DNA of 62,021 nucleotides, taken from positions 1 to 62,021 of the IMG/VR virus record IMGVR_UViG_3300021964_000060, one strand, 5' to 3'. Below the pieces are notes generated by a model, which ran no database searches, was not told where the DNA came from, and worked only from the letters and a program-made list of their open reading frames with translations. This DNA comes from a virus. Lineage: Duplodnaviria > Caudoviricetes. Below, piece after piece: positions 12,882-58,432 of the stretch (positions are counted from its first letter, which is position 1; each line of letters starts with the position of its first letter). A program made the translations under genes and the position numbers.

Positions 12882-14057
12882 CTAATATACAAACAATGTG
12901 TTATTTTTCCTATAACGAATAAATTCCACATTTGTAGAAGGAAATTCACATACTAAACCGGTTGATGTGGGAAAAGCACATATTCTAACAACGCCATCAC
13001 CGCCATGACCACCGTAAAGACCATCTTCGCTACCTGCACCGCCTCCCCCATAATGTCCAGTTCCTTCGGACCAACCTAGTGTCCTACTAACCGCATTTAC
13101 TGAACTTCCGTTAAGACCACCACCCCAAAAACTTATTTGAGAACCTCCAGTTCCAAAACCAGCAACAAGTCCGGTGTTGGTGTTGGTTTGCCCCGCACCA
13201 CCCGTTCCGCTAGCACCTTCTCCCCAAATTCCCGTTCCGCCACCGCCTCCGTGGTTACAGGAATTAAAATGTCTTCCACCCCCGCCGCCACCACCACCGG
13301 CACCATCGAATCCACTATTTCCTCCTAGAGTGGAACCTGGATTTGAACCAAGAAAAGCACATCCGTCACCACCATTGCCCGAATAACCTCCAGCACCGCC
13401 GCCACCGCCACCGTAGTTATAGCACCCACCTCTACCACCATTGCCGCCACCCATACCGGTATTATTACCATAAGTAGTAGTTTGTGAAATACTTCCATCA
13501 AATCTAGGCTTAGCAGCTAATTCCGTTGTATTAGTATTGCGTGATCTTGCTCCAAGACCGCCTTCGGCCTGAACCCTAAAATTACCAAATGCCTCGAGGC
13601 GGTCATCCCAAGTTGAGTCTTCGCCTTCCTGTGCTAAAGTGGTTCCGCTCTGAATAGATATGGCTTGACCGCCTGAACCAACCGTTATATAATATGTGCT
13701 CCCCGGAGTAACATCAATTCCATTCATATAAGCTAAGGCACCGCCAAAGCCTCCTGCCCCGTATGAAGAAGCGCCTCTTCCGGCTCCACCGCCGCCAATA
13801 CATAAAACTGATATTTTACTAATTCCATCTGGGCATATCCAAGTATAATTACCAGGAGTTTCAAATACCCAATCTAATCTTTCTGAGTTTGCACTTGCAG
13901 TCTCATTACCATTGGCACCTTGCAGATATCGAAACGGAATATTCCTAGTAATTAATTCTGCCGTTGCTCGGGCTTCTTCACTCTCATTGAGTCTTTTAGC
14001 AACTTCTTTGTTCGAACTATCAATTACTGAAGCTCGTTTTCCGTAGTGTAGGCTCAT
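12882..14057 (-). CDS. Glycine-rich adhesin-like virion protein (391 aa)
   Basis: FETPGNYTWICPDGISKISVLCIGGGG...GGGGGAGGYSGNGG...GDGVVRI. Start overlaps the upstream fibre stop (ATGA). Confidence 0.8.
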   Translation of the reverse strand: MSLHYGKRASVIDSSNKEVAKRLNESEEARATAELITRNIPFRYLQGANGNETASANSERLDWVFETPGNYTWICPDGISKISVLCIGGGGAGRGASSYGAGGFGGALAYMNGIDVTPGSTYYITVGSGGQAISIQSGTTLAQEGEDSTWDDRLEAFGNFRVQAEGGLGARSRNTNTTELAAKPRFDGSISQTTTYGNNTGMGGGNGGRGGCYNYGGGGGGAGGYSGNGGDGCAFLGSNPGSTLGGNSGFDGAGGGGGGGGRHFNSCNHGGGGGTGIWGEGASGTGGAGQTNTNTGLVAGFGTGGSQISFWGGGLNGSSVNAVSRTLGWSEGTGHYGGGGAGSEDGLYGGHGGDGVVRICAFPTSTGLVCEFPSTNVEFIRYRKNNTLFVY

Positions 14058-17000: not shown

Positions 17001-17596
17001 GCATTATCATCGTCTGTTGATTCATCAACCTGCAAATAACCTGCCACTGCATCAGTTGGATCTAATTTATATGAAGATGTTCCGTTTGTTACATAATAAT
17101 CATAACCTGTTAAAGGAGGATCTCCGGCATATACAAGATTTCCAACACCTGTTGTTAATAGTTCTCCAGATGCATTGGGTAATGTAATTGTTCTTGCCGC
17201 TGTTGCTGTAGCGGCACTTAATGTTGTATTAAAAGATCCTGTATCAAATACAAGATTAGAAGTATTTAAAATAATATCGTTTGTTGTAATATTTCCAAAA
17301 TCAGTTGCTGTTTGCAAATCTGTATTCGAAATACTTTGGTTAACAATTGTTTGAATTACTTCAAGGTTTGCTGTATCAACAGTTAATTCACCATTAGCAA
17401 CAGAAATACCCGAACCTAATTGAACCCATTGTCTTAAACCAATATCTGACGATATAAGCATTCCATTATTTGCTGTAGGAGATCCTAAGTTAGGCTCCGC
17501 ATTTTCAAGACTTAAATATGAGTAACGATCCGCATCTACTGATGTAGGCGAATTAGCTTTTACTCTACCGCTAAGATAATGACCAGGTTTACGCAT
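14054..17596 (-). CDS. Long tail fibre (1180 aa) with a C-terminal KSFLIDHP..H.SLEGPE domain (putative chaperone)
   Basis: Repeated 'ED.II..G...DD.LDRGI.F.Y...WDD' modules and beta-shaft repeats. C-terminus KSFLIDHPTKEGMKLKHGSLEGPENGVYVRG...YGERKD recurs at the ends of phage fibres. Confidence 0.85.
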   Translation of the reverse strand: MRKPGHYLSGRVKANSPTSVDADRYSYLSLENAEPNLGSPTANNGMLISSDIGLRQWVQLGSGISVANGELTVDTANLEVIQTIVNQSISNTDLQTATDFGNITTNDIILNTSNLVFDTGSFNTTLSAATATAARTITLPNASGELLTTGVGNLVYAGDPPLTGYDYYVTNGTSSYKLDPTDAVAGYLQVDESTDDDNAYNVLLMQATSGGTTLPGGSATTGRAAMVDNSGLIFNPGTNTLQCQNIVSFSGYVAADLIQATQTNTDITIRGNGQGHINLYDVVDVAPEYINLGHNVALYQTNSDMGVIIGYNDEANVTASNIQVGVEYQIIDAGDTTWTSIGSPNNTVGTIFTATGAGTGTGIAAPTSGQKRAFFGVDKSDNKFKYIPDATIVNNDTYNDMSATGNLGDAAFRNLTVEGGLLVNGNTTTITAESLEIEDPIIFIGNSNNSVDDNLDRGIVFSYNDGDPKQGFMGWDDSESSFVLYDDVSESNGVITKNSFGEGDLLVAGINSRNSSTIAFATAGLNALTIGGAAARWNFDTRNRNSLILSTSSTFGASDLQIENSETEKVLLDGTNNNIKLYAANTTVVTIDSAGLSVNGNANVSGLSVNGNANVSGLSVNGTLDVSGNVTFEDNIITVGTNADDGLDRGIAFPYFNTAANTSNQALLAWDDDRSRFILVRDGTITNGLVQSTSLAGMKLSELWFTRNPETQGFDINDMNIGAGGIATGGFPAQGYSTKSFIIIEGGSTATSSSLNYLRIGSSYSSNQSIVVHSGLTANVELLVEDANNFLVMSVGGTDKVTVGASSVTISDDTTINGDLFVDSNSTLYTDVITNYDNGLFLLSAAPGTLTMEISGPNETDGTVPTPVIIKGGDGSSSTVVGGDVEISGGNSTTDGVVKIEGQIFPKQIGADGEVLQVANSATGELSWGSVSSTDVLQNISKDNSSDAERFITFVDSASGAQEGKSDSGLKYNPLNNQISLSTLTLKPQEIKMLGGTGSLIFEKYNNHNANIELKDTSTGIFSLKRGGVTYIAMGDSTNNVKLNYNGSPKLETNSGGVDVTGTLTATAKSFLIDHPTKEGMKLKHGSLEGPENGVYVRGRLKGNNIIELPEYWLGLVDEDTITVELTPIGKHQKLFVKDIAANAVLVGNDNLLSKEINCFYTVYGERKDIDKMVVEYDAK
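15713..15814. repeat. In-frame 33-bp tandem repeat (two exact copies plus partial flanks) encoding SGLSVNGNANV
   Basis: accgttaacagataatccggatacatttgcgtt at 15731-15763 and 15764-15796 are identical. Partial third copy at 15797-15814 (1 mismatch) and partial tccggatacat at 15713-15723. Confidence 0.95.
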
Positions 17597-17921
17597 CTAC
17601 AGTTTCCAAATAGCTCAATGTTAATTTAAGAGAAGCACCTGTAGAAGCAAATCCTTTTAAGGAATCTCCGGATTCTAATACAATTTTACCTGTAGTCAAC
17701 GCTGTTGCATCATGGGCCGGAATAGTTAATTCGTCTACAAGTTCTGTTTCTGTTCCGCCCCTTTCATGTAAAAATGTAACTGTGTGATCTGCATTTGTTA
17801 CATTCACACATTGTGCATTAAGAATAATAGATGTCCTTCCTGCAGGCGCTGTGTACACAGTTGCATTTGTGCCTGTAAAGATATAGGTTGTGGTTTTAAA
17901 CTGATTAAGTGAACTTGCCAT
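17589..17921 (-). CDS. Small conserved fibre-associated protein (110 aa, predicted beta-sandwich)
   Basis: VYTAPAGRTSIILNAQCVNV...GKIVLESGDSL...LTLSYLE pattern. Tightly coupled to both neighbours. Confidence 0.75.
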   Translation of the reverse strand: MASSLNQFKTTTYIFTGTNATVYTAPAGRTSIILNAQCVNVTNADHTVTFLHERGGTETELVDELTIPAHDATALTTGKIVLESGDSLKGFASTGASLKLTLSYLETVDA

Positions 17922-17922
17922 T

Positions 17923-19773
17923 TTAATTACCTTCTAAAGCGAGAATGTAAGGAGTCATAATTGCGAATAGTGATCTATCAAACGTTTCACCCTCGATGAT
18001 ACCGTCTGTTCTATTAATCGACAAATCACCGCCAATTCTAAAATCGCCCCTTTGGTCTGTTGATGTGAAATATACCTGTCCTTGATTATTTGTATCTTGT
18101 TCAACTTCATGTTGTTGAATTGGGAAAGCCCCAGCTTGTGGGGTATCATACAAACTAACACCTGTGCCTACATATTCAAATGTAATTGAAGATGCAGCAA
18201 TTAAACTTCTTTGATGAAATGTAATTGACAATGATGAAGAAATATTATCAACTAGTGTTTCTCTAAATCCTATTTTATAATTTCCATTTTGCAATTCAGC
18301 CACAGTTTCAACAGTATAATAAGTTGAAATTCCTTGAAATTGCATTACATCTCCATACCTTGGTTTTTGTGTAGGAGAGCTAATTGTAATACTTGTATCT
18401 ACATTGGCTACCGAACTTGATTGTGTTGTACCTGTATATAGTGATGGGCCTGCACCCGTTGCTCTTAACCCATAATTACCGAATCCACAATTTGAGTTTG
18501 TTAAAGAGCATTGTCCGCCTGATTCAGCAAGAATTCCTATATGACATGAAACAGTAAAGATTGATACTAATTGTGCATAACCGCCATTTAATAGGTGTAC
18601 ACCAATTCCGCCTCCAGAAATTTCTGTGGGCAATGATGATAAACCATTATTAATCACATCAATTATGATTTGAACATTAGACACCGATTGTGCTGAAGAA
18701 CCTGCTTCAGCATCTGCTCCTGATGTATTTTGAGTTGAAGAGGCTTGATATGTCCCATCTGAAGGGGATGTTTTTAGCAACGCATCTTCAATCAAATCTC
18801 TAGTTTTTTGAAGAGCAGCCGCAGTTTCATCTTGTTGTCCAGAAATTCTACTAACTCCATTTGGGGCATAATATAATTTCGCAGCAATTATTGAATGGGC
18901 ATTTGATGATACATATTGAGATTCTTCTAAATCTTTAATTATAGCATCTACAATCAAACCTGTATCTCTATAGCATTTTTCTTCATCATATACAAATGAG
19001 GAAGTAAAAGGAGCTGTATTTGTCCCAATTTGTTCATTAATCCATGCAATAGTTTCATCCTGTATCCATTCTCTATTGTTTGCAAGTAGAGTAGTTGCGT
19101 TAGGATGATTTGATGTTGGTGCACCATTTATTTGTGTGAATGAATCAGAAACCATTGATTTCAATCCTGATGAAAGATTTCCGTCAATTCTCATTCCTGT
19201 TCCACCATTTTGTGTTAATGATGTACAATTTTCAATATAAGGAGAAACGTATACACCGGAAGTAGTCATACCTCCAGGAGGAAAAGATATTGCAGCAGCA
19301 CCTGATGCCATATTTCTGAATGTGAAGTTTGTTAAGTAACATGCTTGATTTACGTAAAATAAATCATTTGTTACGTCAACACCACTAATAGAAGTTGTTC
19401 TTAAGTTATCGCCATATAATGATACATTGGAAGGTATTTCGATGCCACCGTTAGAGTTATCGAGTACATAATCTCCGCTTTTTACAAAAATGGTTGTGCC
19501 TGATGATGCAGCAGAAAGAGCTGCTTCAATTGTTAGGAATGATGTTGAAATTGTTGCACCATCGTGTGCATCATTTCCAGTTTTTGATACATATAAAACA
19601 TTTGATGTTGAATCTGGCTTACCTACCTCTATGATAGACACAGCGCCATTAGCATCTCTTTTGAGATACATTTTACCATCATGGGTATTGATGGCGACTT
19701 CGCCTAACTGTAAATCCCCAGCAGCAGGCACCCGCCCTGCAATGGCACTTCTTTTTAACTTAACGGTTGACAT
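17923..19773 (-). CDS. Tail fibre/tailspike (616 aa): gp37-like N-terminus, pectin-lyase-like beta-helix, inserted helical C-x-R-D domain
   Basis: N-terminal KLKRSAIAGRVPAAGDLQLGEVAINTHDGKMY resembles the T4 gp37 N-terminal motif (recalled as [24 protein letters not shown]). LYVSKTGND..G...FLTIEAAL..A.SGTTIFVKSGDY is a typical beta-helix cap. Confidence 0.8.
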   Translation of the reverse strand: MSTVKLKRSAIAGRVPAAGDLQLGEVAINTHDGKMYLKRDANGAVSIIEVGKPDSTSNVLYVSKTGNDAHDGATISTSFLTIEAALSAASSGTTIFVKSGDYVLDNSNGGIEIPSNVSLYGDNLRTTSISGVDVTNDLFYVNQACYLTNFTFRNMASGAAAISFPPGGMTTSGVYVSPYIENCTSLTQNGGTGMRIDGNLSSGLKSMVSDSFTQINGAPTSNHPNATTLLANNREWIQDETIAWINEQIGTNTAPFTSSFVYDEEKCYRDTGLIVDAIIKDLEESQYVSSNAHSIIAAKLYYAPNGVSRISGQQDETAAALQKTRDLIEDALLKTSPSDGTYQASSTQNTSGADAEAGSSAQSVSNVQIIIDVINNGLSSLPTEISGGGIGVHLLNGGYAQLVSIFTVSCHIGILAESGGQCSLTNSNCGFGNYGLRATGAGPSLYTGTTQSSSVANVDTSITISSPTQKPRYGDVMQFQGISTYYTVETVAELQNGNYKIGFRETLVDNISSSLSITFHQRSLIAASSITFEYVGTGVSLYDTPQAGAFPIQQHEVEQDTNNQGQVYFTSTDQRGDFRIGGDLSINRTDGIIEGETFDRSLFAIMTPYILALEGN

Positions 19774-22382: not shown

Positions 22383-22415
22383 ATCATATCACCAATTCTA
22401 ATATTGAGAGGAAAA

Positions 22416-24989
22416 ATGGCCGTAAGAAATAAATATTCCAGATTTGGTCTAAGAGCTGATAAAAACTTATCAGATTTGCCAGACAGTCAGGTAGCTTTAG
22501 GTAATGTCTTAGACGATTTAGTTACGGGCACCCCTTTTAGTGGATTTGATTTAAAAGTTATTGATGGACTCAGAAATACGAATACAACAAAAAGTGACCT
22601 TGCGGAACTTGCAGGGCAAGAGTCTAAATATACCCCAATAACACAACAATTGGGTGAAACAGTTATTGGTGATCCAGAAGTAACAACTCCTGTATTAACA
22701 ATACAAAATGTAATAGACAATAGGAAAACAATTTTAGGCGACCCACCCATTTTTAGAGGCGGTGATGGGCCTAGAGCAACCGTTTTTCCTGGAACAGCTG
22801 TGTCTGCAAATTCTCATATTGGTGTTAGACCTATATTTGATGATACAAACGATTTTAATGTTGTTAGTAAAGATTATTGGTTAGATGGATATTTTGGATT
22901 TAGTGATGGAATACACCCAACCTTTGAGGACAATTTTGGAGGTATTCAATGGGAAGGGTATCTAGGTGTAGCGCAAGATGAAACTATTGGATTGAGAACT
23001 AATGGATACTTCTTAATTGAAAAAGAAGATGGATTAAAAAGATTTGTTCCCATACTATCTAACACAGCAAGCAATAGAACAATTACTCTGCAAGAAAACG
23101 TAACTGCAAATTTAGAATTTAATGTATCAGTAACTTCGAATACAGCTTTTGTTGATGGTGTTGACGAATATAAAAATAGATGGATAGGAAACTGTGTTTT
23201 TGTAAATGATATATTTGTTGCCAATGGAACTACGTATGAAGTAACATCAGTTGAATATGATTTAGATGCAGAAAGAGCAACATCACAGCCCACAATTGGT
23301 ATAACAAAAATTGATGGACCTGAAAATGGTGTTACGGGTATTATCGGTGACGAATTTACTTTACGGAATAAAGTAATTGGCTCTGAAGTACAAGAATTTG
23401 TCATTCCGGGTGATTTATTATTTGATGGGGAACTAAGAGCTTATAAAATGTCACTATGGTGGCCCAAACCTAAAGATATCGACCCAACAGATAACAGGCT
23501 AAACTATCCGTCTAAATGGGCAACTTTTGATTTTGCTGATAATACGAGTTCTAACCCTGCACCTTATGTTTATTGGTATGAAAATCATCCTAATTTAGAT
23601 GGAACATTGTTTTCATATCAATATTTTATTAACAATAAGATTTCTAACAGAAACGAAAGGACAGAAACATTCGTTGAAAGTTCTAAACAAATATTCACAC
23701 AATATAATGCACCCATATTTTGGAAAGATGCTTGGTTGTCAATGGATTTAAGATGGCTAGGTAGAAATAAATTTGAGATTCTTAATAAAGAAACAGGTAC
23801 TGCTACATCTGAAATAGATATTCAAGCGGGTGATAGACTTGTTATTAGCGGGTCTGTAGGCGGTCAAATATCCTTCGTACACTTTACTGTGTATCAAGTT
23901 AATGGTGATATAATTTGGACAAATCCTGTAGGTGAGTCAACACCAGATCAAATTTGGGATTCACTTAGTTTTGTTTGTAATAGTCCAGACGGACCTATGC
24001 CCGTATTAAACGGCACATGCTTTGCGTTTGTGCTAAAAGCCGATGGCCTGCAAGGTATCTATATGGCTAATACTGCCGTTGTCGCAGCTGGGCGTGAAGA
24101 AACCTTTCAATTAATTAATCCATCAGATGCTCCTAATTGTTATAATTTCCCAGGAACTACGAGGTATTCATTAAATAATATTAAAGGTGATAATATAATC
24201 CATTATCCTTATAATCCACCCCAAGTATCTTTTAACGATACCTATATAGCAAATCGTATTGTATCATCTTTCGCAAATACATTAAATGATAGCACGGAAA
24301 GTGCAGATGTTGTTGTACACCCAGTTGACCCAGCCTTTGGAAACTCGGTTGGATTAACAAGTGCAAATAGACCCGTTGCTGTGTATTCACATAGAGGTTT
24401 AGATGACGCATCTGTTACATTACAGTGTGTTGGTGTATTTGGTAAAGAAGTTAAAAACTTTCCGGAGGCACCAGCTGGTACAAATCGAATAGCAGTGGAT
24501 AGTATTGAGGGTATTGATGTAGGAGATTACGTGGAATATAAAGGCATTATTCCCACACCTACTACTGTGACTAATATTATTCAAACTCCGGTAACAATAA
24601 ATGGCGAACAATACCACGAAATTGAGTTGAGCAATAACTTATTCGCTAACCTACCTAACGCATTTACAATTCTATTTATTAAAAATTCAGAAATTAATCG
24701 ATATTCATCACAGGGTGGACTTGTTATTCAAGATGTTAGTTTCTGTGTATTGCCATTTAATACGGCCCCACCATTTTTGGGAACACCTCAAGGACTGTCA
24801 ACATCACTTGAATATCCGCATGTAGACACAGCGGGTGGTAGATTTATTATGGAACAATTTGAATTAGAAGCGAATACATTTCCTATATTTGACCCAGAAA
24901 CCGCAAACTATAATAGAGGCGTGAGAATACAGGATGGGCAAGGAAATACATTCTTTATGATTGGATCTACTATACCTGAAAACCCTTAA
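22416..24989 (+). CDS. Virion structural protein (about 857 aa), possible PA14-like segment; the only plus-strand gene
   Basis: Long ORF with no competing minus-strand gene. ATG 22416 follows GAGAGG (the ORF track uses TTG 22404). GLRADKNLSDL..S..AL.N.L fibre-type N-terminal motif; GGIQWEGYLG..IGLRTNGYFLIE is PA14-like (weak). Confidence 0.8.
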   Translation: MAVRNKYSRFGLRADKNLSDLPDSQVALGNVLDDLVTGTPFSGFDLKVIDGLRNTNTTKSDLAELAGQESKYTPITQQLGETVIGDPEVTTPVLTIQNVIDNRKTILGDPPIFRGGDGPRATVFPGTAVSANSHIGVRPIFDDTNDFNVVSKDYWLDGYFGFSDGIHPTFEDNFGGIQWEGYLGVAQDETIGLRTNGYFLIEKEDGLKRFVPILSNTASNRTITLQENVTANLEFNVSVTSNTAFVDGVDEYKNRWIGNCVFVNDIFVANGTTYEVTSVEYDLDAERATSQPTIGITKIDGPENGVTGIIGDEFTLRNKVIGSEVQEFVIPGDLLFDGELRAYKMSLWWPKPKDIDPTDNRLNYPSKWATFDFADNTSSNPAPYVYWYENHPNLDGTLFSYQYFINNKISNRNERTETFVESSKQIFTQYNAPIFWKDAWLSMDLRWLGRNKFEILNKETGTATSEIDIQAGDRLVISGSVGGQISFVHFTVYQVNGDIIWTNPVGESTPDQIWDSLSFVCNSPDGPMPVLNGTCFAFVLKADGLQGIYMANTAVVAAGREETFQLINPSDAPNCYNFPGTTRYSLNNIKGDNIIHYPYNPPQVSFNDTYIANRIVSSFANTLNDSTESADVVVHPVDPAFGNSVGLTSANRPVAVYSHRGLDDASVTLQCVGVFGKEVKNFPEAPAGTNRIAVDSIEGIDVGDYVEYKGIIPTPTTVTNIIQTPVTINGEQYHEIELSNNLFANLPNAFTILFIKNSEINRYSSQGGLVIQDVSFCVLPFNTAPPFLGTPQGLSTSLEYPHVDTAGGRFIMEQFELEANTFPIFDPETANYNRGVRIQDGQGNTFFMIGSTIPENP

Positions 24990-33715: not shown

Positions 33716-36700
33716 TTATTGCTCTTCCCATGTTATCCCTACTGCAATTGGATCAGTGTTTTCTCCGACAAGCGTATCACTATCAACAGCAATATATAAA
33801 GATTCAACTTCATCAGTTAACGGGTAAGACAAATATTCTTTATTATAATCAAAATACGTATTCAATTCTATTTGTTCAGTACCTTGTGTCAAATATAATG
33901 TTGCAACAGATGTTCCTGTACCAGGTATTGGTAATACAGGATTATTAACAACATTAATAGATGTTAAACTGTCTTGAGAAGGCAAAATAGTCCTTGTTTC
34001 ATCCGAATATGTAATCACATTAACATCGCCAGTTACTGTATTTGCTTGATAAGCAAATCTATCATCAGGTAAGAATTCACCTGTTTTTAATGTAACAGTA
34101 TCTGTAAATGTATCAAACATATCGAAATAATATGAATTAGCTAACTTATATAACCTACCAAATACTGTGACTTCTTCACCTAAAACTCTTGCTTGGAACC
34201 ATCCATATTTTTCAGCATTATTTAATAAGAATGGATCGGGAGCAGCGGATTCAGTTACTGTTAATGGCAGTCCCTCAGCGGATATAGTATATTCTGCTGA
34301 AAGATTTAGAGTACCATCTATCACATCTTCTGTTTGAAATACTGGTGTCTTTTTCATTCTCATTCTTACAGGGTTATTTCCTAAATTCGCTGTTGATAAT
34401 TTTGTAGGATAAACCTGTACACGGTTTCTTACTCCAGAAGAATTTACGGCAGATACAATAACATCTTTTGTTTCTAATCCGTATGCTGTAGGAGCTCTAT
34501 CTGTTACAAGTGTTATACCTTGACCTACAGGCTGTCTTGTGAACTCAACGAAATTTCCATTAACCCAATTAACTTTGATGCCCTGGTCTCTCGCATCACC
34601 AGTCTGTAATTCCGCACCCATAAAGAATGTTTTATTGCTTGGAATTGGAACTCCATCTGTAGTGGTCAACTCAGTTATTTCATATTGTCTTGAGGCAGCA
34701 GCGCCTGTGGTTGTTATTTGCCACTTTTTACCTACTGCATCAACTGTTGTGTTGTTATTATGAGAATATAACCTGACTGTACCACGGTCACCGCCATCAA
34801 TATAATACGATGCACCATACTTGACAATATGATGAGAGGCATTACCATAATTGTATGTATCAGTTTGATATTCTAAATCACCACCCGTTATTTCAGAACC
34901 CCCACCCCATACATTGTATGTAATAGGTAATGTTGCGTTACCTAAAGATGCAATTTTTAATTGGTTAGAAGCTCTTAAATGGTGTACACGAACCCATCTT
35001 GCTTCACCGTTATCAATGGGAACATACGCTAAGAATAATGCACCAACCGCACCGTACCATGAGAACTCAACCTTAAGCATGGTAACTTTTGTGAAGTCAA
35101 AGTTATATAGTGATATTGCATCTTCCCATAGTCCATCTTGATCTTGAACATTAGCGCCGGGTCTAACAATACCTGTAGGTCCTGTTGCTACATCAGAATA
35201 AACTCGCTTACTAACTTTGCCATCTAACTTATCATGCGAGAATCTAGATCTAGGAACACGATATTCGTACACACCCCAATACTCTGGATTAACATTATTC
35301 TTAATCCAGTTAATATATTCTATATTAAAGTTAATATTGTCATATTGTCTTCTTATTTCTGACAAATTTGCATTGACATTAGAATCTAATGATGTGTCGA
35401 TATATCCTAAGTATACAGCTTCAGCATCATCTAATTGAATATTAGATGAATACTTTAGAGGGAATTGCATACCTTTAATAAACGGATCTGAATCATCATC
35501 ATAATTTGTAGATATATTTACTCCATCAATATTGGTAATTGTACCTGCTTCTCTTGTATCAAATCTGTAATATTGTGGATCATAAACCTCTGGAACTTCA
35601 AAAGGAGTCACCAACTCAAAGTATACGTAATTATCACCATCATCATTTGTTTGTGGTGTAAAGTCTTCTCCTGTATCCGGATCAATTGTAAAAACTTTTT
35701 GACCTTCAGGATTGTTAGAATATTTGTATGCTCTAATAGTAAATTGATTACCTTTTGCACCAATTACTCTATCAACTGTAAATATTGCTCCATTTTGCCA
35801 TCCTCCAACAGATTCACCCGATGTTCCTGTAACAACAGGCCAATCTTGACCATTACCTGTATACATTCTTACTTTTTGACCGAATGTAACGATTCCTTTT
35901 GTTAAAGTAAATACAGTTTGATATCCATCAAGTCGTGCATTGTTCATATCGTAATCATCGGGTCCAGGACCAGCCGTACCATCATTATTAAAATCAATAA
36001 ATTCAAATCTTGTATGAGCTTTAATTTTTTCAATCGGTTTAAGCAAAGATGGATCATTAACAGCGGCATGGATCATAGGCAACCCATCTCTAAATGCAAC
36101 TAAGTTAGCAGCAAATCCACGAGTACCGTATTCTACTGCAATAGTTGATTCAGAGTTAAAGTTTTCGATTAGATCACCAGCAAGCGATATGATTTTACTT
36201 TCAATTGGATTTGAAGTATTCATATTAAAAGGTGCTTCTTTTAAATCTTCGAGAATCATATCTCTTAGGTGTGTATGCCTTGATCTTTCGGATACTTGTG
36301 AGTTTCCGTCTTGACTTTGACTATAAATTGATTGTCCATCACCCTTATAATACATTGACATATTATATTTTGTTTCGGCATTTCCTCCGCCAACAATATC
36401 ATTTTTATATCCATCAATCACATATAACAAATCTCTAGCACACTTATATTTGATATTTTCGTAAAATCTGTTAAGTTCTAATGCCATCGTAGCACTCACA
36501 TCAGTTCCATACAATTGAGTGAGTGGAGGGACATATCCTGGAATAACTTGATTTACCATAAAATCAAGACCATCGCCTGGCCCGTTAATAGGATTGTATC
36601 TATAATTTACTGCGTTTGATGTGCTATGTATAGCTGTATTCGAATAAGGAATAGTTGCACCTGCATCGACATCACCAGCGCTATAACTAGATACAAAATA

Positions 36701-37939
36701 AGACCAATAATATTTTCTGGCATCAAAAATAGTATCTATTCTTTCTTTATTGCCCCAGTCAACTGTAGCACAAAGAGTTTGCCAGTATGTCTTAACAGAA
36801 GCAGTGTTTTGACTGAAAAGATCTAGTGTAATATCTGTTAAGGTATCTAACTTGTTATATGCTCCACTACCTATTGAAAACTCAGCAAGAATTAAATCCT
36901 TTACAAATGAATATAAGAATTTTTCTCTTTCTGGGTTAGGCAATAAAGCGGTTCTATAGTTTTTACTGTTTAATCTTGTGTGAGCATCTCCTCCCCATTC
37001 AAGATCCATCATATACATTTCAATTGCAAATTGTACATCTCTATGACATTTATCTCTAAAGACAAACATATCTCTGTCTTCATATTGTGTCACAGCATTT
37101 TGGCCACCATATTGTGTATTAAAGTTATCACCATTAGTGTCTGTCCATGTAGTATTTGCGAGAGCTTGTTCAAATGCTGATTCCGCAATTGCAATTTTTT
37201 TATCGGTTAGTATATCTCTTTCTCTAACAAACAAATTACCTTTCGGAATTTTAAATCCTTTTCCGCAAGCTCTATAATCATCCGTTTGCTGTTTTGTAAT
37301 AAATTGTTCATCATTAAAGTTTGTAGCTTTCCTAATTCCTTGCCCGACATTACCAAAGGGTGAATTTGGAAAATTTAACAACGATTGTGTTCTACGAACA
37401 ACATTAAAGTTATCACCTTCACCAGATTGACGATGCTCCCAATAATACCCATCAAAATTATCAAAAATTCCGTATTTACGTATAGCGGGATTAGGTGCAA
37501 AATCTGCAGTTGATACTGTTGCTTTAACACCAAATGTTGCTGCTGAAACACGACCTGGTTGATATCTAAAGAAACGCTTTGACGTTAAAATAGCATTTTT
37601 ATCTCTAACTGCTTCAACTAATGCGCCAGCTTCATTAGGTAAGTGTTTAATACCTAATCCTGGAGTATATATAGGTGGCTGAGAAGACCATTCTGATGGG
37701 TTAACATCATAGGTGTTAACATCAGCAAAAATACCTAATGCAACTTCAGCACGTGGAATGCCCAAGAGTGAAAGTGATACTTCCGACTGTACTTTGTTTT
37801 GCTCCTCAACAGGAATTGGTTGTTGATCTGAAGCAAGTACAACAGGAATGGATCTCGATGCAGGCTGTTGTCCTGGTGATACAGGAGTTGTACGACCAAC
37901 GTTTACAACACTGCTATTTGAATTAATTCTAGTTGACAT
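33716..37939 (-). CDS. Large virion protein (1407 aa), FRYQPGR..FSWYG family, with two helical KC.RD inserts
   Basis: SLLGIPRAE, FRYQPGRVS, KVTMLKVEFSWYGAVGA, GEARWVRVH and KYGASYYIDGGD motifs; KCHRD and KCARD segments. Confidence 0.8.
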   Translation of the reverse strand: MSTRINSNSSVVNVGRTTPVSPGQQPASRSIPVVLASDQQPIPVEEQNKVQSEVSLSLLGIPRAEVALGIFADVNTYDVNPSEWSSQPPIYTPGLGIKHLPNEAGALVEAVRDKNAILTSKRFFRYQPGRVSAATFGVKATVSTADFAPNPAIRKYGIFDNFDGYYWEHRQSGEGDNFNVVRRTQSLLNFPNSPFGNVGQGIRKATNFNDEQFITKQQTDDYRACGKGFKIPKGNLFVRERDILTDKKIAIAESAFEQALANTTWTDTNGDNFNTQYGGQNAVTQYEDRDMFVFRDKCHRDVQFAIEMYMMDLEWGGDAHTRLNSKNYRTALLPNPEREKFLYSFVKDLILAEFSIGSGAYNKLDTLTDITLDLFSQNTASVKTYWQTLCATVDWGNKERIDTIFDARKYYWSYFVSSYSAGDVDAGATIPYSNTAIHSTSNAVNYRYNPINGPGDGLDFMVNQVIPGYVPPLTQLYGTDVSATMALELNRFYENIKYKCARDLLYVIDGYKNDIVGGGNAETKYNMSMYYKGDGQSIYSQSQDGNSQVSERSRHTHLRDMILEDLKEAPFNMNTSNPIESKIISLAGDLIENFNSESTIAVEYGTRGFAANLVAFRDGLPMIHAAVNDPSLLKPIEKIKAHTRFEFIDFNNDGTAGPGPDDYDMNNARLDGYQTVFTLTKGIVTFGQKVRMYTGNGQDWPVVTGTSGESVGGWQNGAIFTVDRVIGAKGNQFTIRAYKYSNNPEGQKVFTIDPDTGEDFTPQTNDDGDNYVYFELVTPFEVPEVYDPQYYRFDTREAGTITNIDGVNISTNYDDDSDPFIKGMQFPLKYSSNIQLDDAEAVYLGYIDTSLDSNVNANLSEIRRQYDNINFNIEYINWIKNNVNPEYWGVYEYRVPRSRFSHDKLDGKVSKRVYSDVATGPTGIVRPGANVQDQDGLWEDAISLYNFDFTKVTMLKVEFSWYGAVGALFLAYVPIDNGEARWVRVHHLRASNQLKIASLGNATLPITYNVWGGGSEITGGDLEYQTDTYNYGNASHHIVKYGASYYIDGGDRGTVRLYSHNNNTTVDAVGKKWQITTTGAAASRQYEITELTTTDGVPIPSNKTFFMGAELQTGDARDQGIKVNWVNGNFVEFTRQPVGQGITLVTDRAPTAYGLETKDVIVSAVNSSGVRNRVQVYPTKLSTANLGNNPVRMRMKKTPVFQTEDVIDGTLNLSAEYTISAEGLPLTVTESAAPDPFLLNNAEKYGWFQARVLGEEVTVFGRLYKLANSYYFDMFDTFTDTVTLKTGEFLPDDRFAYQANTVTGDVNVITYSDETRTILPSQDSLTSINVVNNPVLPIPGTGTSVATLYLTQGTEQIELNTYFDYNKEYLSYPLTDEVESLYIAVDSDTLVGENTDPIAVGITWEEQ

Positions 37940-41319: not shown

Positions 41320-42070
41320 TTGCTTGCGGATCAAATTCAGCAGTTTCCCACCAATCACCCCAAACATTATCGCCTAAAGGTTTTAATCTTTTTCTTATTT
41401 GAAATGTTGATCTAAGGTAATTCACCTCAGATGTTGTAGCATCAGAAACAGATTGCTCAACATTATTACCTGACACATTTTCTTTATATGTGTTAGATCT
41501 ATTATAAACTTTATAAGTCTTTTCCGGAACAACAGTTTCTACGCTATGTGTTATAGTAGAAATTCCTTTAGGAAAAATTCTAGACATTAAACCTAACTCA
41601 TTCACTCTTTCTTCTTTAGTTTGAATCCAAACAATTTGTCTATTAGAAATGTAATCATCAACAGTTTCTTTAATATATGTATAACAATCATCTAATGAGG
41701 TAAAATTTCTAGATATTACTGTATCATCAGTTTCTGCAGTCATTCCTGGATGATTTACGATGTACTCCCCAGCATCTTCTATATTTTCTTTTCCAAAAAT
41801 TAATCGTAAATACTGAACGTTAGATAAATATCCTAACATTCCCTGTCTCCAGAATTGAGGAATTGAGTGATCTGTGTGTAATAAGTGCAAGTGTTGTTCC
41901 GGATCTTGGCTTCTTGGGTCACCTAGTTCTGGATGGTTTTTAAAATATTCGACCAAAAATTTTCTGGACTCAACACACCCATCACCTTGAACTTCAGCAT
42001 CAGGTACAGTTACACTAAATAACTCAATCATGCGCTGCATTTTAATTAAATCAATTCTATATTTGCTCAT
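41315..42070 (-). CDS. Hypothetical protein (251 aa)
   Basis: ORF coupled to the upstream Gly-rich gene by a 4-nt overlap. Globular composition with no recognised motif. Confidence 0.7.
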   Translation of the reverse strand: MSKYRIDLIKMQRMIELFSVTVPDAEVQGDGCVESRKFLVEYFKNHPELGDPRSQDPEQHLHLLHTDHSIPQFWRQGMLGYLSNVQYLRLIFGKENIEDAGEYIVNHPGMTAETDDTVISRNFTSLDDCYTYIKETVDDYISNRQIVWIQTKEERVNELGLMSRIFPKGISTITHSVETVVPEKTYKVYNRSNTYKENVSGNNVEQSVSDATTSEVNYLRSTFQIRKRLKPLGDNVWGDWWETAEFDPQAI

Positions 42071-43302
42071 AGTTCAGATCCTAATCTTACTCCGCCAATA
42101 TCAACGACTTGAACATTTGCATCCGTTCCGGAAACTCTAACTGCCTGTCCTCCGGCGCCGCCCCTGCCGCCGCCAGATCTGGTACTATCACCTCCCGGTT
42201 GGCCCCAGCCGCCACCACCACCAGTTTCACTACCATTAGAGCCATCGCCGCCCCAGGCTCCTCCGTTTCCGCCACCATTATTGTCACCGGTGCCTCCTGT
42301 TGCGGTTTGTCTCCAGTCACGGCCTCCGCCACCGCCACCACCGTATAGTGTAGAAGCTTTGGTTCTTGTGCGTCTTCCGCCACCGCCGCCGCCAGCAAAT
42401 CCGCCAGCTCCCGGTTCGTTACCGCCACCATTAGCGCCTCTTAGAATATTTGCATCGTTTCCTTCATTACCAGATATAGCTCCTGCACCGGTACCCGTGC
42501 CGCCTGCTCCGTTATATGCTCTTCCGTTTCCACCGCCAGCGGCACCGCCGCCGCCTCCGCCAGAGCCAACATCGGATCCGCCACCGCCGCCTCCGCCAGC
42601 TAAAATAAACCCTGCATTAAGAACTCGGACTAAAGGTAAAACACTATCTGGATCATTGACGTTTTGCCTACCTGCATTTACTTCTATAGCATCGCCGCCA
42701 ACTTGACCGGATCCTCCATCACCTCCGCCTTGACCACCTTTTCCTAATATAATTCCTCTTGAATCAACTGTAATAGGGTTTACCCAAGCAGCTCCACCGT
42801 TGGGATTATTAGTGGCTTTATCTATTTTAATTGTAGGATTTTGTACTGATGTTCCATAGATAATTACATCTGCAGGTATGAGAATAACTAATTCACTAAA
42901 TCCATTCCATCCTTGTGCAACTGCATTTGATAATAAATCATAGTTTGATGTTTGATAGGTTCTGTATGTTTGACCTCCAGCGGTTGTGAAAGTGTTAAAA
43001 TCACTTGGACCAGGAAGTTGTCCATCAGGATATCCAATTGCCGCATCTTCAGGATTACCGCCAAAATACCATGTGTGTATATTTTCTGCCCCATAGAAAT
43101 CACTTAATGAAATAGGGGAACCTTTTGAAGGTATATCTCTGTCAGCTGAAAAAAATTCTGAAATAGCAGTAAACCCTACATCATTAAATTCGGCCCTCAC
43201 ATCACCCAGAGAAATAGGTACGCCATTTCCTTGAAGAATACTAGTTTGAATATTATCAGTACTAGTATTAGATGAACCAACAATAAAATCCGTATTAGCC
43301 AT
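42067..43302 (-). CDS. gp38-like glycine-rich adhesin (411 aa)
   Basis: GIILGKGGQGG...GGDAI...VRVLNAGFILAGGGGGGG, polyglycine tracts and C-terminal GGAGGQAV...GGVRLGSEL match the T2/S16-type gp38 layout. Directly follows an S74-bearing fibre. Confidence 0.75.
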   Translation of the reverse strand: MANTDFIVGSSNTSTDNIQTSILQGNGVPISLGDVRAEFNDVGFTAISEFFSADRDIPSKGSPISLSDFYGAENIHTWYFGGNPEDAAIGYPDGQLPGPSDFNTFTTAGGQTYRTYQTSNYDLLSNAVAQGWNGFSELVILIPADVIIYGTSVQNPTIKIDKATNNPNGGAAWVNPITVDSRGIILGKGGQGGGDGGSGQVGGDAIEVNAGRQNVNDPDSVLPLVRVLNAGFILAGGGGGGGSDVGSGGGGGGAAGGGNGRAYNGAGGTGTGAGAISGNEGNDANILRGANGGGNEPGAGGFAGGGGGGRRTRTKASTLYGGGGGGGRDWRQTATGGTGDNNGGGNGGAWGGDGSNGSETGGGGGWGQPGGDSTRSGGGRGGAGGQAVRVSGTDANVQVVDIGGVRLGSEL

Positions 43303-56029: not shown

Positions 56030-58432
56030 TTATTCCCTATCAAATGTGATACTGTCGTTATCGAAAGTCAATAATTCTTCATCAAATGTATCTAAGTTGT
56101 AATCTTGTCCTATTGCCAGCGGAACCGAATTATCGAAAAATGGTAATTCAATTCCTGTAGTTGCGTCAAAGTTAACAATTACTGCATTAAGTATTTCACC
56201 TTGCTCAGTTGTAATTGTTACACCATTTTCATCTTCTTGCTCAACTCTTAACGGCAATTCAGCAAACGTATATGACTCAATGGCTACATCCGCATTAGGT
56301 CTTGTATTATTAATTGTATTTATCAAAGGACTGCTAAACATTTTTGTCCCAGCAACATGAACAGTGTCCTTTACGATATTTTCATATTTTGAAGGATCTA
56401 ATAAAGATGAAATATCGTATGAATACTCTTGATAATAATTATTATCTTGAATATATTTACCTGGATCATTTAAATGAGAAGTTGTTGTAAACCATTGTCC
56501 GTTTGTTTCACCCATGCCCCCAACAGAAAGTTCAGCAAATGCTACTGTTTCACCTGATTCTTGATTTACAAGAGCAACCTTTTCTTTGTCTCTGTATTTA
56601 AACCCGGACTGCAAAACATTAATTCTACGAATTTGACCAATAAGTAATTCTGAATTACCTCTAATATCAGCGTTATAACCCATAGGTCTTGAATTTAAAT
56701 CCTCACCAACATCTTCAATTACAAGTTCCCTTCCCCTAAACTCAACTTCTCCTCTTTTTGGCTGAAAGAAAGTAATAGGTCTAAAATAGAATATACTTCC
56801 TTCACGTCTTAAGAATGTTGCCTTTGCATCATAAGGTCTAAACCCTGTAGGGAAGGCATCTGTATTATAAGTTAAATCTTCAATTTCAATTCTTTGTGTT
56901 AATACATCACCTGCCTGAATAATAAAATCACTTCTATCGAATCTAATGGCTAAATCTCTATAATCATATTCAATTAAATCTGGAAACCTTAAAATAGTTC
57001 TAACGTTATTTACATAATCTGTTCCAGTGTCTAATACTCTCAATCTTCGAACACTGCCAATTTCATATGTAGTAGGTGTAAACGCATCTTTTATTTGCGT
57101 ATTAATATTCTCTAGACCCGGACCTGACATTCCATAGTTTTGCGAGTCTAGCCTTACGCTCAGAAAATCTTCAATCTTATCTGTAATAACACTAATCTCT
57201 TCTTGATTAGAAAAGACACCTATATCAAAAAGAGCAGTATCGTTATATTCCGCATGTCCATCAACTTGTATTCTTAATCCATCATTTAATGTGACAGTTG
57301 TTGACCCCTGTGTTGGATAAGGAACAAATGCCGTATTTCCAATGGCGACAAAAGCTCCGTTTGCAGGCGATACATTGTTAGGCGGTTCAACATCTAAGTA
57401 AACAATAGGATGTTCATATGCGACAACAGTTCCTCTTCCACTAAATACGTTATTACTGTCCGCATCTGATAATGGGTTTTCCGGATCTCTTGTGAATATC
57501 TCTTCTGACTCTGCTGTTAAGACGTCAAACGGTTCTATGTTATACGCTGTGTTACCACTTAGAATTAATACCTGTGTCGAAATAATAAGTTCGTTTTGTG
57601 TTTTATCGACAGAAAATCCAAAACCACCATCTGCAATTTCCCATTCAATAATACCTGATGGTTTAAGAGATACATCTTCAACAACAGCAGTCGCATCTAC
57701 CCCAAAGGCATCAGATATAAGATTTAACCTATCGCCCACTTTATTGTTAGGTCTGGAACCTTCTCTTAATATTGTGGTGCCTTGTATTGATCCATAAATT
57801 AGAGGACCCGGATAAGAAACAACCCCATCTCTTTCCCGTATAATCCCGTCATCAGCTAAGAAGGAACCGAATACGTTTGAAACATATCCTACGGGAACAA
57901 TTGCGCCATTAATATTATAAAATACAATATCATCAATATATGCATATGCCTTTGATAAATCTCCTCTAATAACATCACCTTTTGATAGAGGAAATTCATC
58001 AACTGTTGAAACAGATTTGAATTCTATAAATTTAGTAGATACAAATTTAGAATCTGATATTTTTAATATTGCATTTGATGGATAAAATAATTCAACCTCT
58101 TCTTTAAAAAACATATTAAAGAGAAGTTCGACCGATTCAGGTGTTCCTTTTCTAGTATATAAATCAGCGATATGCTTTACAATAAATCTTAAGTCATCAA
58201 AAGAAGTATTTACAAAAGGTAAATCTTTTAAAAACTTTCTTTTATAATATATTAAAAACTGATTAAAGGTAGTATCAATATCACACAGTTCAGAAAAGTT
58301 TCTATGGGTTTGATTATCTAAAAACTCATAATACGCTTTAGTAAACTCGACAAAGAGTTTACCATCTTCCCTATAAAACTCCGGGAACTGGTCAGGTATA
58401 AATGGAGCTATGGAAGGTGCAGCATATCTCAT
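56030..58432 (-). CDS. gp7: Baseplate wedge initiator gp7-like
   Basis: QFPEFYRE...FVEF.KAYYEFL, IADLYTRKGTPES..LLF, IQDNNYYQEYSY and HVAGTKMF motifs; follows gp6. Confidence 0.8.
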   Translation of the reverse strand: MRYAAPSIAPFIPDQFPEFYREDGKLFVEFTKAYYEFLDNQTHRNFSELCDIDTTFNQFLIYYKRKFLKDLPFVNTSFDDLRFIVKHIADLYTRKGTPESVELLFNMFFKEEVELFYPSNAILKISDSKFVSTKFIEFKSVSTVDEFPLSKGDVIRGDLSKAYAYIDDIVFYNINGAIVPVGYVSNVFGSFLADDGIIRERDGVVSYPGPLIYGSIQGTTILREGSRPNNKVGDRLNLISDAFGVDATAVVEDVSLKPSGIIEWEIADGGFGFSVDKTQNELIISTQVLILSGNTAYNIEPFDVLTAESEEIFTRDPENPLSDADSNNVFSGRGTVVAYEHPIVYLDVEPPNNVSPANGAFVAIGNTAFVPYPTQGSTTVTLNDGLRIQVDGHAEYNDTALFDIGVFSNQEEISVITDKIEDFLSVRLDSQNYGMSGPGLENINTQIKDAFTPTTYEIGSVRRLRVLDTGTDYVNNVRTILRFPDLIEYDYRDLAIRFDRSDFIIQAGDVLTQRIEIEDLTYNTDAFPTGFRPYDAKATFLRREGSIFYFRPITFFQPKRGEVEFRGRELVIEDVGEDLNSRPMGYNADIRGNSELLIGQIRRINVLQSGFKYRDKEKVALVNQESGETVAFAELSVGGMGETNGQWFTTTSHLNDPGKYIQDNNYYQEYSYDISSLLDPSKYENIVKDTVHVAGTKMFSSPLINTINNTRPNADVAIESYTFAELPLRVEQEDENGVTITTEQGEILNAVIVNFDATTGIELPFFDNSVPLAIGQDYNLDTFDEELLTFDNDSITFDRE

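Follow-up and report, generated by a model that had tools for sequence, protein, structure and literature searches.

Bilin biosynthesis-associated globins (BBAGs) are paralogues of phycobiliproteins that lie outside the light-harvesting antenna. In the available text of Rockwell, Martin and Lagarias (2023, PMC10151467) a CXRD motif is described for many phycobiliproteins as well as for those members of BBAG-1 and BBAG-3 that the authors studied; representatives of these two groups bind bilins without lyases, and the function of BBAGs is described as not yet known. We report here a module of similar type in a viral structural protein. It was found in a stretch of 62,021 nucleotides, positions 1 to 62,021 of the IMG/VR record IMGVR_UViG_3300021964_000060 (Caudoviricetes), hereafter the window. 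The protein that hosts it, P0001, is tail-fibre-like and 616 amino acids (aa) long; it is defined by its open reading frame (ORF) and translation at 17923..19773 on the minus strand. Judging from the predicted structure and from profile comparisons, the module is a globin fold very probably homologous to phycobiliproteins, within a wider clade of CXRD bilin-binding globins.

With phycobiliproteins, taking phycocyanin alpha (CpcA) for comparison, the module shares the globin-like core of helices B to H and the equivalents of Lys-Cys-x-Arg-Asp, Tyr74 and Gly89. Phycobiliproteins are free subunits of 160-170 aa, whereas the module is a domain inside virion proteins, present in 1 to 34 tandem copies; it lacks the X/Y hairpin and has an invariant Asp and an invariant Tyr of its own, and cellular genomes are essentially free of it (4 loci in 185,579 species genomes). 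What it has in common with BBAG-1 and BBAG-3, as these appear in the available text, is CXRD in a globin paralogous to phycobiliproteins. BBAGs, however, are stand-alone cellular proteins encoded beside genes for heme oxygenase and pre-PcyA, while the module is viral and structural, and a neighbourhood of that type (heme oxygenase, PF01126, with reductase, PF05996) was not found in the window, a 62-kb fragment estimated to be ~36% complete.

The phycobilisome core-membrane linker ApcE (PDB 4xxi) resembles our case in that a phycobiliprotein-type domain is part of a large multi-domain protein; it aligned to the module model with Z 12.4 and a root-mean-square deviation (rmsd) of 2.4 A over 115 residues, and ApcE chains of the phycobilisome structures 7eyd, 9wg7 and 7sc7 gave Z 11.2-11.4. 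It differs in being part of the cellular antenna, in having a single domain of this type with linker repeats after it, and in having its attachment Cys at another position. The same module, finally, is present in giant proteins of T4-like cyanophages: p091 and a separate 3,779-aa 'short tail fiber protein' of S-PM2, as well as gp7 of P-HM2 (9 module matches in S-PM2, 4 in P-HM2). The flanks of P0001 match cyanophage tail-fibre PHROGs, but P0001 is short, with a single copy inserted in its beta-rich core in place of a tandem array. A literature search, with most subscription journals and supplementary tables outside its range, found no description of a domain of phycobiliprotein-like or globin type among phage virion proteins.

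Predicted fold of the module

The module occupies residues 218-387 of P0001 (~170 aa; 18613..19122, minus strand) and is identified by AlphaFold2, the structure aligner VIA, profile search and hhalign; a profile hidden Markov model (HMM) of the module scores 140 bits on it. A preliminary description of the window had placed a helical, phycobiliprotein-like segment between two beta-type strings of this protein. The strings that it quoted (SDSFTQING, GGIGVHLLNGGYAQLVSIFT, ATTLLANNREWIQDETIAWI, YDEEKCYRDTGLIVDAIIKDL, QQDETAAALQKTRDLIEDAL and VSNVQIIIDVINNG) are all present in the 616-aa translation; its numbering of Cys267 is right, and the codon falls at 18975-18973 by arithmetic. The AlphaFold2 model of residues 218-385 has six helices, with a mean predicted local distance difference test score (pLDDT) of 93.8 and a predicted template-modelling score (pTM) of 0.90.

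We aligned this model by VIA with 48,161 representative chains. With Z 10.8-13.4 and rmsd 2.4-3.3 A, the eight best were all of the phycobiliprotein family. Phycoerythrin beta (Z 13.4, rmsd 2.8 A over 143 residues) and far-red allophycocyanin (also Z 13.4) led, followed by the bilin-binding domain of ApcE (Z 12.4), a core-cylinder chain of the phycobilisome (Z 12.3), three phycobilisome core chains of ApcE type (Z 11.2-11.4) and, last, phycoerythrin alpha (Z 10.8). Lower ranks were taken by RsbR-type and photocobilin globins at about Z 10 and by haemoglobins at Z 5.6-6.5. Foldseek listed 31 rows, 28 of them phycobiliproteins by title, with template-modelling scores of 0.46-0.60. An independent model of full-length P0001 again found phycobiliproteins first. 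The phycobiliprotein- or globin-like fold suggested in the preliminary description is therefore what AlphaFold, VIA and Foldseek return, for two models.

The N-terminal X/Y helix hairpin, through which phycobiliproteins pair into the alpha-beta monomer, is absent from the module: residues 1-158 of the model align to residues 26-184 of the matched chain, hhalign starts at phycobiliprotein position 34, and beta-rich fibre sequence stands immediately N-terminal of the module. Two candidates were dropped. A haem globin was rejected on the low rank of haemoglobins and on the lack of a conserved His (at most 11% at any module position); an intradomain disulfide was rejected on the finding that the Cys is usually alone in its module.

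Sequence kinship with phycobiliproteins

Among ten scanned homologues of P0001, two passed the cut-off of 22.2 bits for Pfam family PF00502 (Phycobilisome protein) (P0007, 41.5 bits, E 1.8e-10; P0006, 25.0 bits), P0004 reached 10.1 bits and seven had no match. When 55 single modules were scanned, PF00502 matched 11 of them at E<=10 (best E 0.0026) and had no match in the other 44; it was the only recurrent Pfam family, others being found at most twice each. A giant ORF of S-PM2 gave 30-31 bits after neighbouring matches were summed. PF00502 is recognised in the module family, then, and not in the window copy.

A profile made of the 55 modules (A1) was searched against 177,635 distinct PDB sequences. 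At E<=10 there were 22 matches, 21 of them phycocyanin alpha, the best being 6jpr_A with E 8.9e-4. Positions 5-61 of A1 lie on CpcA 37-104, with Cys-x-Arg-Asp falling on Cys84-x-Arg86-Asp87. We also compared A1 by hhalign with four CpcA and CpcB sequences, from authentic genes of the Acaryochloris marina plasmid pREB3. The score was 38.2 (P 1.3e-5, probability 81%) over 125 columns, joining module positions 6-147 to phycobiliprotein positions 34-171, that is, helices B to H. The reversed profile scored 10.1; 200 column shuffles had a mean of 12.4 and a maximum of 22.4, and 200 shuffles of 12-column blocks, in which the motif was kept, had a mean of 22.7 and a maximum of 37.1. The real score was unmatched by all 400 shuffles. 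The high scores of the motif-keeping shuffles show that much of the signal comes from the motif, and the other helices contribute more through their collinear order.

The proposed register of C-x-R-D on Cys84-x-Arg86-Asp87 was borne out by HMMER, with both PDB CpcA chains and A. marina CpcA/CpcB, and by hhalign. In P0001 the motif is K266-C267-Y268-R269-D270 (18964..18978, minus strand), aligned to Lys83-Cys84-x-Arg86-Asp87 of CpcA; the full map pairs Tyr262 with Tyr74, Lys266 with Lys83, Cys267 with Cys84, Arg269 with Arg86, Asp270 with Asp87 and Gly272 with Gly89.

A true insertion into a beta-rich fibre protein

The orthologue of P0001 in phage P-SSM2, PSSM2_293 (617 aa, same gene order), reads ...DSYTQYNVSGIGVSV... 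without interruption at the insertion point, where P0001 has ...DSFTQING, 170 residues, then GGIGVHLL... The homologues P0006 and P0007 are likewise uninterrupted there (...YTQYNQGGIGIH...) and have their own module copies elsewhere in the protein. Residues 218-387 are a true insertion, and the module occupies a loop of a beta-rich tail-fibre protein.

The N-terminal beta-rich part (~residues 59-217, ending in SDSFTQING; 19123..19599, minus strand) shows short strands only, at residues 94-216, with pLDDT 64-84. The C-terminal beta-rich part (residues 388-616, beginning with GGIGVHLLNGGYAQLVSIFT; 17926..18612, minus strand) has strands at 390-522 in the full-length model; it has many invariant columns in common with homologues, and PHROG 5342 'tail fiber protein' covers residues 383-591. 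The helical stretch itself, residues 225-335, matches phrog_4527. The full-length AlphaFold2 model was poor (mean pLDDT 56.4, pTM 0.48, from a 12-row alignment), and we used from it the secondary structure (short strands at 94-216, six helices at 224-376, strands at 390-522) and the phycobiliprotein matches of the helical part. The preliminary description spoke of a tail-fibre beta-helix. Insertion into a beta-rich fibre stands; the beta-helix label is weakly supported, by PF07602 (DUF1565) on the equivalent N-terminal stretch of homologue P0003 (21.1 bits, cut-off 20.3) and by one structural match of the full-length model to a PL6 alginate lyase over 245 columns.

One copy of a large viral repeat family

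The preliminary picture needs one correction: the insert, though real and far beyond chance, is no one-off but a single member of a repeat family. Searched exhaustively by phmmer, residues 218-385 matched 734 representative proteins at E<=1e-3, 451 at E<=1e-10 and 177 at E<=1e-30. Many of these proteins are very long, at 2,000-6,400 aa, and as many as 34 stretches were matched in one protein. In marine T4-like cyanophages the family decorates giant proteins of baseplate-wedge (gp7-like), tail-fibre and 'short tail fibre' type; within the BFVD library the fold turns up again in proteins whose only name is tail, structural or uncharacterized. Local search with the module HMM gave 1,614 domain hits in 162 proteins.

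Across ~1,520 copies the Cys is conserved in 96%, the Arg at Cys+2 in 96% and the Asp at Cys+3 in 99%; an Asp at Cys+14 is found in 100%, a Tyr at Cys+30 in 98%, a Tyr at Cys-5 in 85%, one Thr in 87% and one Gln in 83%. In near-full copies the Cys is kept in 796 of 834, and in 637 of 834 it is the sole Cys of the module. Conservation of the motif is extreme for a structural repeat.

The window has two more, partial cores of the module, both in a 1407-aa ORF (33716..37939, minus strand) that matches PHROG 1645 'virion structural protein'. The first is divergent (KCARDLLYVIDGYKNDIVGGGN..., with KCARD; 36317..36451, minus strand; module HMM 27.3 bits, domain E 3.4e-8), and the other is weaker (KCHRDVQF...; 36953..37057, minus strand; 14.1 bits, domain E 3.8e-4).

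The module is, in essence, a viral one. Among the 185,579 species genomes scanned there were 61 pattern matches, and the 4 loci that encode a relative of the module were all in environmental assemblies. The contigs of these four loci bear the labels Sphingobacteriaceae, Gammaproteobacteria and Rhodobacteraceae (two contigs, ~50 kb) and probably come from phages, having been binned with bacteria.

Co-occurrence with CpeT and with light-dependent adsorption

In the available texts, cpeT is reported from 12 of 16 cyanomyovirus genomes with its role called 'unresolved' (Sullivan et al. 2010, PMC3037559), the benefit of bilin genes is called 'unclear' for Prochlorococcus phages (Clokie et al. 2010, PMC2984593), and bilins are described as made also by phages whose hosts lack phycobilisomes (PMC2984593, PMC11480375). 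We looked for the module, for the bilin-lyase homologue CpeT (PF06206) and for bilin genes in 26 isolate phage genomes, in panels of 11 and 15. In the first panel P-HM2 and S-PM2 were picked as known holders of the module and P-SSM2 as holder of the orthologue, the remainder by adsorption phenotype or morphotype; before the searches, CpeT status was presumed only for S-PM2, Syn9 and P-HM1, as carriers of cpeT. In the second panel ACG-2014e, S-CAM4 and S-RIM2 were already known to carry the module, S-SKS1, S-SRM01 and S-CAM9 came from the list of whole-protein matches, and the other nine came from the gp6 list.

The module was present in five genomes of the first panel: P-HM2 (4 places), S-PM2 (9), P-HM1 (4), Syn9 (3) and P-SSM4 (3). 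The module profile had no match in P-SSM2, P-SSP7, P-GSP1, Syn5, P-SS2 or S-TIM5; for P-SSM2 a full-sensitivity local search of the whole genome also found no module (best 9 bits, E 0.17). PF00502 matched exactly the same 5 of the 11 genomes, in the same giant ORFs, and CpeT was found in exactly these five. A bilin reductase was found in P-HM2, P-HM1, P-SSM2 and P-SSM4, a heme oxygenase in P-HM2, P-HM1 and P-SSM2. The second panel had 7 genomes with both module and CpeT, 4 with the module only, none with CpeT only and 4 with neither (phiN3, ME01, S-SRM01 and S-CAM9). For all 26 genomes the counts are 12, 4, 0 and 10 in the same order, with Fisher P 2e-4 when ancestry is ignored; for the 20 T4-like cyanophages, ancestry again ignored, P is 0.014.

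In S-PM2 (NC_006820.1, 162500-178500) the 'short tail fiber protein' of 3,779 aa carries the module, and cpeT (S-PM2p217) is found 1.45 kb upstream of its gene and on the same strand; a 2OG-Fe(II) oxygenase gene separates the two. In the same record 16 tRNA features with the same locus tag lie inside this 3,779-aa coding sequence, which looks like an artefact of annotation coordinates. Gasper et al. in 2017 reportedly found that a phage CpeT binds phycoerythrobilin tightly, with no transfer to a host phycoerythrin subunit. In P-SSM2 (NC_006883.2, 213709-220597) the orthologous fibre cluster directly follows the heme oxygenase gene, only an HNH endonuclease gene standing between. A link of this heme oxygenase to the module was considered and dropped, as both the orthologue PSSM2_293 and the whole P-SSM2 genome are without it.

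Adsorption phenotypes have been published for some of the same phages. In the available text of Liu et al. (2019, PMC6628666), P-HM1 and P-HM2 fail to adsorb in darkness, P-SSM2 does adsorb though less well, and P-SSP7 and P-GSP1 adsorb as well; S-PM2 is named there as light-requiring, and adsorption of some cyanomyoviruses is said to need light and yet to be independent of host photosynthesis. Presence of the module agrees with these phenotypes, as given in that text, for all six phages (6 of 6): it is found in P-HM1, P-HM2 and S-PM2, which require light, and not in the dark-adsorbing P-SSM2, P-SSP7 and P-GSP1, and P-SSM2 among the latter is itself T4-like.

What the conserved cysteine may do

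From sequence and model we propose that Cys267 of the module may bind a bilin and that the virion may carry pigment; we hold this quite possible, although tentative. Cys267 would bind a linear tetrapyrrole by a thioether link during fibre assembly in the infected cell, helped by Lys266, Arg269, Asp270 and Tyr262. The bilin would come from a heme oxygenase and a bilin reductase of host or phage, and attachment could be autocatalytic, as in BBAG-1 and BBAG-3, or aided by CpeT of the phage, so that pigment would be displayed on the virion. The most speculative step is the use of the pigment, which might be a light sensor gating adsorption, or a photoprotectant. In its strongest form the proposal makes a photoreceptor of the cyanophage virion, with arrays of bilin modules on baseplate and fibre, loaded by CpeT, in which light shifts the conformation. 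We regard this as unlikely, but if true, the modules would be the missing acceptor of the CpeT 'lyase', and the adsorption of P-HM1, P-HM2 and S-PM2 in light only would be explained. To our knowledge, it would be the first case of a virus particle with a light sensor.

A number of observations weigh against bilin binding. As to the fold, helical models may reach Z of about 13-14 in VIA without true kinship, and the best Foldseek E was 0.018, with none <=0.001. As to the site, the strongest invariants beyond CXRD, Asp281 (100%) and Tyr301 (98%), map to positions that are not conserved in phycobiliproteins. The window copy is itself diverged, its 'GGN' turn being replaced by ESQYVSSN; no Pfam family was found for P0001 at E<=1 or for the isolated module at E<=10, and a six-frame search of the whole record for PF00502 at E<=10 found nothing.

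Further points concern the supply of bilin and lyase. The preliminary description had seen no ho1, pebS/pcyA or cpeT in the window, and indeed searches for heme oxygenase (PF01126), ferredoxin-dependent bilin reductase (PF05996) and CpeT found none in this 62-kb record, a fragment estimated at 36% of its genome. P-SSM2 has heme oxygenase and bilin reductase and no module, so that phage bilin synthesis serves another purpose there. The module is without CpeT, at the threshold used, in ACG-2014d, ACG-2014f, S-T4 and S-SKS1; the CpeT candidates of ACG-2014d and ACG-2014f fail E<=1e-3. T-type lyases, moreover, are described in the available text of PMC10452541 as acting on beta subunits at the site of Cys-153 type, rather than on Cys84. 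The tables of co-occurrence and of phenotype are small, their phages have shared phylogeny, and some genomes were picked with module status known.

The host, too, is uncertain and may be non-cyanobacterial. The gp6-like protein of the window (58429..60180, minus strand) is closest to that of Sinorhizobium phage phiN3 (37.9% identity, E 1e-113), with cyanophages at 26-28%, and its best IMG/VR relative has 47% identity; both module and CpeT were absent in 10 of 10 IMG/VR gp6 relatives on contigs of at least 60 kb, though this sampling was mostly of short fragments and the ten long contigs are uninformative on co-occurrence. It is from the gp6 affinity and these ten relatives that the uncertainty about the host arises. 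The window phage is no close member of the known T4-like cyanophages; its fibre genes may have been acquired by exchange with them.

Many of the same points would be expected if the module were a structural relic, descended from a phycobiliprotein or BBAG-type globin and now a rigid spacer or decoration bead without pigment, a reading that we consider possible, if rather doubtful. The conserved Cys, Arg, Asp, Asp and Tyr would then hold together the fold, or the contacts from copy to copy or chain to chain. The module comes in up to 34 tandem copies per protein, as one would expect of a building block; the invariant Asp at Cys+14 and Tyr301 are not phycobiliprotein residues, the X/Y hairpin is lost, and the model folds with high pLDDT without a ligand. 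The four module-bearing genomes without CpeT and the bilin genes of the module-free P-SSM2 fit it as well. Against a relic speaks the cysteine: a lone residue kept in nearly all copies, and partnerless in most near-full ones, is unusual for a structural role. The residues kept are, besides, exactly those of the CXRD attachment motif as given in the available text of PMC10151467, and in none of the 26 genomes was CpeT found without the module.

Some different chemistry of the thiol, such as disulfides or other cross-links between chains or modules that stabilise the fibre, or a non-bilin ligand, e.g. a host surface molecule, appears improbable to us. The thiol is unpaired within the domain, the protein is extracellular, on the virion, and probably oligomeric (the family being annotated as tail fibre or baseplate), and the invariant Asp, Tyr, Thr and Gln peculiar to the module point to remodelling of the site with respect to phycobiliproteins. 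But within module copies, where it was looked for, there is no second conserved Cys as a fixed partner; the lack of a conserved His speaks against haem, and the co-conserved Lys-Cys-x-Arg-Asp is the bilin motif. Least of all do we believe in a helical bundle and a short motif that came to be alike by chance or convergence, without common descent: pairwise identity of 10-18%, the weak PF00502 matches of single modules, a motif-keeping shuffle that came close to the real score and the readiness with which helical folds give middling Z-scores would allow it, but the Pfam HMM, the module profile against PDB, hhalign and two structure aligners agree on family and register, the top eight VIA chains are of one family, and no shuffle equalled the real hhalign score.

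Gene surroundings of the fibre protein

P0001 matches PHROG 17885 'tail fiber protein' (E 9.6e-85). By tblastn its relatives were found in 190 phage records, every one at <60% identity, mostly of Synechococcus and Prochlorococcus phages, and they are mostly cyanophage tail-fibre genes. The whole protein gave noise only against PDB sequences in phmmer (3 matches, E>=0.29), and the ESM Atlas had no usable match for the query.

The gene lies within a minus-strand structural run with fibre-like ORFs of 637, 616, 110 and 1180 aa; gp6-, gp7- and gp8-like baseplate wedge proteins are encoded farther along the same run. The neighbours match tail-fibre and baseplate-wedge PHROGs (E 4.2e-127 for the gp6-like protein), and by its PHROG match and its place in the structural gene block P0001 is a tail-fibre/baseplate structural protein of a T4-like phage. 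The 110-aa ORF (17589..17921, minus strand) follows the fibre gene after a 1-base gap and matches phrog_1276, of unknown function (E 5.6e-11). A small ORF, PSSM2_294, holds the equivalent position after the P-SSM2 orthologue, and this synteny is conserved; the 110-aa product may be a factor for fibre assembly or an accessory one.

Two glycine-rich proteins with long poly-Gly runs (391 and 411 aa; 12882..14057 and 42067..43302, both minus strand) are encoded elsewhere in the window, and their genes form its two G+C peaks, 0.48 and 0.42 against ~0.36. The sole large plus-strand ORF (22404..24989; 861 aa, TTG start) stands amid structural genes of the minus strand. No PHROG matches it at E<=1e-5, and the sign of the GC skew changes at this place.

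Implications for cyanophages and for bilin-binding globins

New here are the repeat nature of the module, the very strong conservation of its motif, its occurrence together with CpeT and its agreement with adsorption phenotypes. Should bilin binding hold, one domain would link three questions about cyanophages: the role of CpeT, the synthesis of bilins by phages and light-dependent adsorption. Even without a bilin, phages would have captured a phycobiliprotein or BBAG-type globin and multiplied it into a building block that is among the commonest of their giant fibre proteins. A viral branch is thus added to the family of bilin-binding globins, and a name is given to a domain known in public records only under 'tail', 'structural' or 'uncharacterized' protein.

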